Part shown: positions 31,923-33,182 of the stretch, piece after piece
How positions within the stretch are numbered: position 1 is the first letter of the stretch
How the letters are laid out: every line of letters begins with the position of its first letter
IMG/VR virus record: IMGVR_UViG_2778261381_000005
Direction: 5' to 3' (one strand)
Source: a virus
Lineage: Duplodnaviria; Heunggongvirae; Uroviricota; Caudoviricetes
Length of the DNA stretch: 61,778 nucleotides
Program-made: the position numbers and the translations under genes
Notes under the pieces: generated by a model
The model's database searches: none
What the model saw: the letters and a program-made list of their open reading frames with translations, nothing else
Told to the model about the DNA's origin: nothing

Positions 31923-33182
31923 TTAGTTACTGATAGTTTCAGGTTTGGGAAAACTGAACAGTAAATCACGATAGTACTCGTATTGTTTCTGGCGCAACTC
32001 GATTTCACGCGGAAGACCTTCGGTGATGGAATTGGTCAAAGCATCAAATTTATCCAGTAATTTCACTATTTTTTGTTGTTCAACTAGCGATCTTTCAGGA
32101 GAATCAGGAAATGGTACTGGTATCATAAGTTTTCTTAAGTTATCATTATAAAGTCTTTTAATAGTTCCACCTTCAGATATTCCCCATTTTGCTATTTTAT
32201 AGAAATAGAATAAATATTTATTTAAAACTATTTTTTCATTATTTTCAATCCAGACAATATTGCTATCCTGGAAATATGATTCCCTACCATCAAATATAAC
32301 AGTCCTGCCGATGGTCCCACTGGCAGAAATCAATACTTCGCCAACTTTAGGATAACTATATTTTTCTTTAAATTCATTAAATAGTTTTCTAGATATATAG
32401 GAATCGGGTTCCTTACCAAATGTCCCAATTTTATAAAATGGAATCTCTCCCTCAGAAGATGTTTGTGATTTTAGGATTCGTTTACACATACGAACTTCAC
32501 CAATTTCCCCCAAAGCTTTCCACTCAACCTCACCCTCTTTAAAACTCAACAACTGGTCGCGATAGTAGTTGTATTGTTTTTTACGCATGCTAAGCTCAGC
32601 GGTAAGCTCAGCGGTAAGCTCAGCGGTAAGTGCAGTAAATTTATCCAGAATCCTGACGATTTCAGACTGGATAGCCAGCGACTTTTCCGGGTTGTTGGGG
32701 CAAGGGATGGGGATAAGTAATTTACCTATATCTTTAGCATACAAATGATAAACAGTAGAACCTTTAACCATTTGCAATATCTTTTTTTTGTTATTTATTA
32801 TGAAATTACTTAGATATCTACCATCAACACCAGAGCATCTAATAATCAAAATATCGCCGCCTAAAATAACGCCACTTTCTTGAATGCAACTAGCTGTAGC
32901 CAAACCTCTTGGTGTAACGTCTGACGTTGGCATTAGAACATCATTTTTTTCAGATAGAATTGACTCATTGATTGCTTGGTTTGTTTTTGAGCATACTTTG
33001 TCAATTATGGGACCATAATGAGTGAAAAGCTCACCGTAATGAATACAATATCTATTGCCATCTGGAGTTATTTTTTCTTTAGGTAAAGACTTCCCTTTTA
33101 AAAAAGTTGCTAATTTATTTAATGCTACCCACTCAACCTCAGCCCCATCCAGCAGTTTTTCCAGATAACTCAGCTCGCTCAT
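31923..33182 (-). CDS. hsdS: type I restriction-modification specificity subunit
   Basis: Two target-recognition halves around central [12 protein letters not shown] repeat; start overlaps hsdM stop. Confidence 0.9.
32592..32627 (-). repeat. three tandem 12-bp repeats encoding TAEL x3 in the central conserved region of hsdS
   Basis: aagctcagcggt x3 on plus strand. Confidence 0.9.

Follow-up and report, generated by a model that had tools for sequence, protein, structure and literature searches.

The hsd locus described here is very probably an intact type IC restriction-modification operon of the EcoR124 family, carried by an SSU5-like phage-plasmid and holding a three-repeat spacer allele of hsdS that is predicted to be switchable by one repeat unit. 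The whole stretch of viral DNA analysed, 61,778 nucleotides long, is called the window below. A preliminary description had called the system potentially switchable, in line with the otherwise identical operons, with two or with three TAEL units, that we found in three backgrounds. The switch mechanism itself is already established and is not new, the operon being an instance, from nature, of a specificity switch known from textbooks. What is new is an uncharacterised pair of target-recognition domains (TRDs), the occurrence in nature of twins with two and three copies across several mobile backbones, and family-wide evidence for turnover of the repeat and for 1-, 4- and 6-copy alleles.

Results

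Organisation of the operon and relation to EcoR124

The three genes are arranged in the order hsdM-hsdS-hsdR, all on the minus strand, with the end of hsdM overlapping the start of hsdS by 4 bp (Table 1). Their Pfam domains were complete, HsdS showing two stretches matched by Methylase_S as well as a full-length PADLOC Specificity_I match (490 bits), and the catalytic motifs of HsdM and HsdR were intact. Indeed, the HsdM translation contains NPPY (SNPPYS) and DPAAGSGS, while that of HsdR contains the DECH box (FDECHRS) and the nuclease D...ELK motif (RYD...QIELK). Judged by these features, the locus reads as an intact and complete type IC restriction-modification operon. The hsdS gene is identical in CP031294, AP022163, CP097183 and MG904996.

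Table 1. Features of the hsd operon in the window, with the evidence on which each assignment rests.
Feature	Position	Strand	Basis
hsdM, N6-adenine methyltransferase subunit, 520 aa	33179..34741	minus	ORF, translation, Pfam N6_Mtase and HsdM_N
hsdS, specificity subunit, 419 aa	31923..33182	minus	translation; identical to WP_094310829.1
HsdS N-terminal conserved region, residues 1-18	33129..33182	minus	aligns to 7bst_A residues 1-28
TRD1, N-terminal target-recognition domain, residues ~19-152	32727..33128	minus	no alignment to 7bst_A
HsdS central conserved region, helix D1 of coiled coil, residues ~153-226	32505..32726	minus	near-identical to EcoR124 HsdS 139-208, plus one TAEL
TAEL x3 tract, spacer-length ruler	32592-32627	minus	three perfect tandem ACCGCTGAGCTT units, HsdS residues 186-197
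TRD2, C-terminal target-recognition domain, residues ~227-352	32127..32504	minus	weak alignment to 7bst_A
HsdS C-terminal conserved region, helix D2, residues ~353-419	31926..32126	minus	near-identical to 7bst_A C-terminus
hsdS-hsdR intergenic spacer, 121 bp, no ORF	31802..31922	minus	sequence
hsdR, motor and nuclease subunit, 1038 aa	28685..31801	minus	ORF, Pfam HSDR_N, SWI2_SNF2, T1R_D3-like, EcoR124_C

HsdR (1038 aa) and HsdM (520 aa) had been proposed to match EcoR124I in size and in N-terminal sequence. The open reading frames confirmed these sizes, and the likeness was found to extend over the full length of both proteins: HsdR was 98.3% identical, end to end, to EcoR124I HsdR (2w00_A), with 18/1038 residues differing, and HsdM was 99.0% identical to EcoR124 HsdM (7bst_D), with differences at 5 of the 519 aligned residues. 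For HsdS, phmmer aligned residues 1-28 and 153-419 to EcoR124 HsdS (7bst_A), the conserved blocks being near-identical and the TRDs of low similarity. The alignment to the EcoR124 specificity subunit that had been suggested beforehand was obtained for the three conserved regions, but the TRDs proved unlike those of EcoR124. In the central conserved region, the sole difference in length was one 4-residue TAEL unit, 7bst_A having two. All the sequence features of type IC systems that were tested (subunit similarity, operon order, HsdS layout, 12-bp TAEL repeat and catalytic motifs) were present, and the near-identity of HsdR and HsdM, the HsdS conserved regions and the shared 12-mer support the earlier assignment to the EcoR124 family. 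Both the anatomy of the operon and its family membership are direct observations. The definition of type IC systems also includes subunit complementation and antibody cross-reaction with EcoR124 (PMC3874165).

The gap between hsdS and hsdR contains an 8-bp inverted repeat (31907-31900, GACCGGAT; 9 nt; 31890-31883, ATCCGGTC), overlapped by a promoter-like TTAACA-18-TATTTT at 31895-31866. EcoR124 hsdR has a separate promoter, and the inverted repeat may have a regulatory role or act as a terminator in front of a separately expressed hsdR. Promoter and terminator scans of the operon yielded hits no more frequent than those in shuffled sequences, and a search of the 61.8-kb window for tRNA genes and for Rfam families at the gathering threshold found none.

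The TAEL repeat tract

Three exact copies of ACCGCTGAGCTT follow one another on the minus strand (32592-32603, 32604-32615 and 32616-32627), in frame, according to the translation, within the 419-aa minus-strand hsdS ORF at 31923-33182. Tandem Repeats Finder reported a period of 12 bp, with 3.3 copies and 100% matches, over 32591-32630; this program, the translation and exact matching agreed, to the base, with the three tandem 12-bp TAEL repeats announced in the preliminary description. Elsewhere in the 61.8-kb window the 12-mer was not found, even when one mismatch was allowed, so that its total is three; 0.21 matches would be expected by chance, and three were reached in 0/100 shuffles. The repeat unit of EcoR124II is the identical 12-mer, as read from the mutagenesis primers in PMC10644984, and the residue following the repeat is Ser in the window HsdS and Asn in EcoR124II. 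A second 12-bp tandem repeat (33264-33286, 1.9 copies, 100% match) was observed in the part of hsdM coding for the C-terminal helix; it encodes AELNAEL, a peptide also present in EcoR124 HsdM.

Target-recognition domains

The TRDs showed no clear homology to those of EcoR124 HsdS, TRD1 being unaligned and TRD2 weakly aligned. Since both domains differ from those of EcoR124, a different recognition sequence is to be expected, and the window system is predicted to have one of its own. A PDB sequence search with HsdS matched EcoR124 HsdS alone, through the conserved regions, and gave no TRD match from which half-sites could be assigned.

Combinations of TRDs varied widely among 120 homologue representatives. 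At a threshold of at least 85% identity, TRD1 was recovered in 22/120, 21 of these 22 having a different TRD2, and TRD2 was recovered in 96/120, with many different TRD1 partners (95). Comparison of these sequences indicates that TRD shuffling is pervasive in the type IC hsdS family. In p88COLEC-2, an SSU5-like plasmid (L007, 924-2141), HsdS combines TRD2 of the window, and three TAEL units, with TRD1 of EcoR124, which we take to be the reader of the GAA half-site.

Natural two-copy and three-copy siblings

The three-copy hsdS gene of 1260 bp was found in 4/40 E. coli records covering the gene (AP022163, CP031294, CP097183 and CP029421), to which the plasmid collection added one record, p15ODDR (MG904996). 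A two-copy gene of 1248 bp was present in about 36 E. coli records and is the commoner allele for this TRD pair. The 1248-bp allele (WP_001293038.1) has one 12-bp unit fewer than the window allele and 0 substitutions. Alleles differing only in unit number, as a repeat-number switch predicts, were thus observed directly, and this likeness extended beyond hsdS. The 6057-bp operon of pYUSHP31-2 (three copies) showed 0 SNPs relative to those of pYUSHP6-3 and pMRSN346595_67.9 (two copies), and that of pGD31-F25 (three copies) differed from OW849379 (two copies) by 1 SNP over 6057 bp. The window and p15ODDR (three copies) showed 0 substitutions over 2.26 kb relative to HCP6S3_I1 (two copies, plus a 4-bp frameshift). 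The three backgrounds represented by these twins are 53-173 SNPs apart.

The hsdR and hsdM backgrounds that carry the window hsdS are, by contrast with the gene itself, diverged. Indeed, hsdS together with the neighbouring 3' portion of hsdM (31923 to ~33350-33840) was identical across the window, L001, L005, L009, L010 and L013, while the hsdR genes and 5' hsdM portions of these operons (28685-34741 in the window) were 46-173 SNPs apart, which makes the operon a mosaic. As far as these sequence comparisons go, recombination among type IC operons seems to have dispersed the window hsdS allele in recent times, and the identity of hsdS across diverged operons means that recombination of hsdS segments does occur. 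Two histories would account for the twins: three or more gains or losses of a unit within the tract, or the transfer of a short stretch of hsdS from operon to operon by recombination.

Damaged copies were also encountered among these records. The three-copy hsdS of CP029421 (H4) is interrupted by IS1, HCP6S3_I1 (L003) has a 4-bp deletion at hsdS nucleotides 354-357 that inactivates the gene, and elppa10 (L008) has a frameshift and an internal stop in hsdR. CP059946 (L004) displays many single-base indels resembling long-read errors.

Copy number and signs of unit turnover across the family

Type IC hsdS is present in about 23% of complete E. coli genomes. Copy number was estimated with a 216-bp DNA query covering the central region, as query span minus record span, in 60 evenly spaced records out of 1235 matching ones; about 26 had three copies, about 30 had two and 4 were ambiguous, which places the three-copy state at about 46%. 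Two other ways of counting were discarded. Identity bands of the 216-bp query place diverged three-copy and identical-flank two-copy sequences together. A census of protein cluster representatives (115 two-copy, 5 one-copy, 0 three-copy) was biased because siblings with two and with three copies fall into one cluster at 90% identity, and DNA sampling showed three copies to be common. The five representatives counted as one-copy comprised three true single-unit alleles and two with a substitution in one unit.

Unit number varies beyond two and three. One-copy alleles were exact siblings of two-copy alleles in two cases (P0042 vs P0019 and P0076 vs P0053), with 0 substitutions each; the proteins P0038, P0042 and P0076 are alleles outside the classical range of two or three. 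On metagenome contigs, four TAEL units were found in an intact gene (L028, 661-708), six in an allele open to the contig end (L029, 3784-3855), six on the reverse strand in a gene with a disrupted N-terminus (L027, 7193-7264), and five or more at the edge of a contig (L026, 7-66). Alleles with 1, 2, 3, 4 and 6 units thus exist, all in frame through the repeat tract. Three perfect units were also confirmed in hsdS genes with other TRDs, for example on the AR_0067 plasmid and p88COLEC-2. The exact three-unit 36-mer occurs in Erwinia, Pantoea, Serratia, Buttiauxella and Rosenbergiella, and in the betaproteobacteria Comamonas, Simplicispira and Giesbergeria.

Turnover of the units was examined in 76 phage-associated loci (viral contigs L045-L120), a sample that is not biased toward perfect DNA repeats because it was collected by protein similarity. 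Three units were present in 28 of about 67 of the phage-associated loci, and the test set consisted of the 55 non-redundant genes that have two or more TAEL units. The units were identical in DNA sequence within the gene in 53/55 of these, while 9-11 synonymous unit variants were distinguished between genes, including ACCGCTGAGCTT, ACAGCCGAGCTT and ACAGCAGAGCTT, and several variants were found at more than one copy number. When units were shuffled among genes (20,000 trials), the number of homogeneous genes averaged 14.4 and did not exceed 24, a comparison that ignores relatedness and illustrates the pattern without providing a probability. This turnover signature, itself directly observed, is one of concerted evolution, and points to recurrent deletion and renewed duplication of units, or their conversion, at a pace exceeding that of silent change. 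At the level of sequence, it supports the view that the TAEL tract is dynamic across the family.

Genomic context

The first 25 kb of the window showed 98.6% identity to Escherichia phage Cyrano and 77% to Salmonella phage SSU5, and the annotated neighbours of the operon (nrdAB, thymidylate synthase, a DfrA51-type reductase, metG, apbC and ParB-like genes) are typical of SSU5-like phage-plasmids, to which the carrier of the operon can be assigned by these similarities. The 6057-bp operon was 100% identical to that of p15ODDR (MG904996; 112.8 kb; pig, Switzerland). It was found in only four phage records, Cyrano not being among them, and is therefore an accessory module. Host-like genes lie at about 13150-39161 of the window (nrdA, nrdB, thymidylate synthase, DfrA51-type dihydrofolate reductase, rnhA, a homologue of DNA polymerase III theta, apbC and metG), and an orphan phage N6-adenine methyltransferase gene at about 22670-23263; the coordinates of these backbone genes were transferred from the annotation of L011, with an offset of +11922.

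The window hsdS occurs in several contexts: SSU5-like phage-plasmids, plasmids with phage genes, plasmids with SMODS/S-4TM and phd/doc, and a chromosomal island. Plasmids with tRNA genes, dnaB, baseplate, phd/doc and terminase genes are presumably P1-like, to judge by their appearance. A block in which phd/doc and a remnant of pdcB come after hsdR-hsdS-hsdM was encountered more than once, either adjoining a SMODS/S-4TM (CBASS-like) pair and copies of IS1 and IS5 (L009, L012, L014 and L006) or among phage genes of P1-like appearance on a plasmid (L013). This arrangement suggests that the hsd-phd/doc block is a fragment of a phage-plasmid captured by other plasmids.

Discussion

The control of specificity by repeat number has been textbook knowledge since 1989. 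By analogy with the EcoR124 enzymes, two HsdM subunits and one HsdS would form a methyltransferase reading a bipartite site, one half-site per TRD, and the addition of HsdR would convert it into an ATP-driven translocating nuclease cutting unmodified DNA. An antiparallel coiled coil would hold the TRDs apart, with the TAEL repeat in one of its helices, and three units would place them about 1 bp further apart than two, so that the same half-sites would be read with a spacer of N(k+1) vs N(k). The two specificities would then be interconverted whenever a single 12-bp unit was added or removed, whether through unequal crossing-over or through replication slippage between perfect repeats. This model is in line with published work, in which the TAEL repeat sits in helix D1 of the coiled coil separating the TRDs, two units give EcoR124I (GAA N6 RTCG), three give EcoR124II (GAA N7 RTCG), three are also found in EcoDXXI and EcoprrI, and hybrids with altered repeat number shift the spacer as predicted (PMC3874165). 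Deletion of one unit from EcoR124II led to the restriction of different T5-like phages (PMC10644984). For the window system, the 1-bp spacer change and the activity of both alleles are inferred from EcoR124I/II, EcoDXXI and the hybrids. Slipped-strand changes had been proposed as the origin of the switch. The change of specificity with unit number on which that proposal relied is established for EcoR124I/II, but the published route to it is unequal crossing-over (PMC3874165); slipped-strand mispairing would be an alternative route, and the sequence data do not separate the two.

Among known systems, EcoR124II resembles the window operon in gene order, in the near-identity of HsdR and HsdM, in the conserved regions of HsdS, in three copies of ACCGCTGAGCTT and in the existence of a two-copy sibling, as EcoR124I is for EcoR124II. 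It differs in its TRDs, which are unrelated to those of the window and so correspond to different half-sites, and in its carrier, the conjugative plasmid R124 (R124/3), unlike the SSU5-like phage-plasmid. EcoDXXI and EcoprrI likewise have three TAEL units in their central conserved region, along with TRDs unlike those of EcoR124, and so exemplify the modular build of the family. EcoprrI, however, has the prrC anticodon-nuclease gene between hsdS and hsdR, and such an arrangement was ruled out for the window, where the 121-bp noncoding gap contains no prrC and no ORF. In phase-variable type I hsdS genes with simple-sequence repeats (Atack et al., 2019; PMC7383803), tandem copy number likewise varies between otherwise identical genes. 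By contrast, the 12-bp unit of the window, a multiple of three, keeps the frame at every copy number, which rules out on/off phase variation of this hsdS; a change in copy number should retune specificity instead of switching expression on and off. A full-text search of the literature for the HsdS protein accessions and the plasmid name found no paper mentioning these accessions.

The siblings could also be explained by a single expansion event, after which a short hsdS patch spread by homologous recombination, the tract itself not switching recurrently. The absence of SNPs in hsdS and 3' hsdM across operons that are 46-173 SNPs apart elsewhere, which indicates that hsdS segments recombine, and the pervasive shuffling of TRDs in the family both fit such patch transfer. 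We nevertheless consider this explanation unlikely, as it needs at least three transfers, each of less than ~2 kb and each leaving a two-copy twin at 0-1 SNP, while other TRD pairs have independent one- vs two-copy twins, copy numbers from 1 to 6 exist across the family, and units are homogenised within loci family-wide. Taken together, this burden of transfers, the one- vs two-copy twins, the range of copy numbers and the homogeneity of the units indicate frequent local gain and loss.

Doubt may also bear on the three-copy allele itself. With this TRD pair, it could be a neutral, impaired or relaxed-specificity length variant, since the two-copy allele predominates, inactivated copies exist (IS1 in CP029421, the frameshift in HCP6S3_I1), and how the register of the coiled coil accommodates the extra turn is unclear according to a review (PMC3874165). 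This seems improbable to us, however: activity with three repeats is established for EcoR124II, EcoDXXI and EcoprrI as well as for engineered hybrids (PMC3874165), three units are as frequent as reported above in the sampled E. coli genes and phage-associated loci, the window operon is intact with all catalytic motifs, and the HCP6S3_I1 frameshift falls on a two-copy allele, so that decay is not specific to three copies. Assemblers can miscount tandem repeats, and the indels of CP059946 are of the long-read type, but the chance that the extra unit arose from faulty sequencing or assembly is negligible. The 36-bp tract is indeed far shorter than any read, and an assembly artefact is ruled out by five independent public assemblies, produced in different countries and on different platforms, all of which carry the identical 1260-bp three-copy gene.

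A broader proposal, to which we give somewhat less than even credence, is that in natural populations the TAEL tract functions as a genuine contingency locus, with one to six copies providing a ladder of spacer lengths. Units would be alike within nearly all genes and unlike between genes because turnover of the tract outpaces synonymous substitution. Phage-plasmids and other mobile elements with type IC systems could then, time and again, redraw the barrier that restriction sets up, as well as their own immunity to sibling elements, with no need for new TRDs.

One and the same TRD pair, present with two or with three repeats on near-identical phage-plasmids, on hsd-phd/doc plasmids and on one chromosome, constitutes a natural test case. 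As these alleles reside in sequenced strains, they offer matched pairs for measuring the predicted 1-bp shift and what it does to exchange among sibling elements. The homogeneity of the units and the 1-, 4- and 6-copy alleles suggest that turnover is commoner and wider-ranging than in the classical two- vs three-copy picture which, if true, bears on how mobile elements diversify their restriction specificity.
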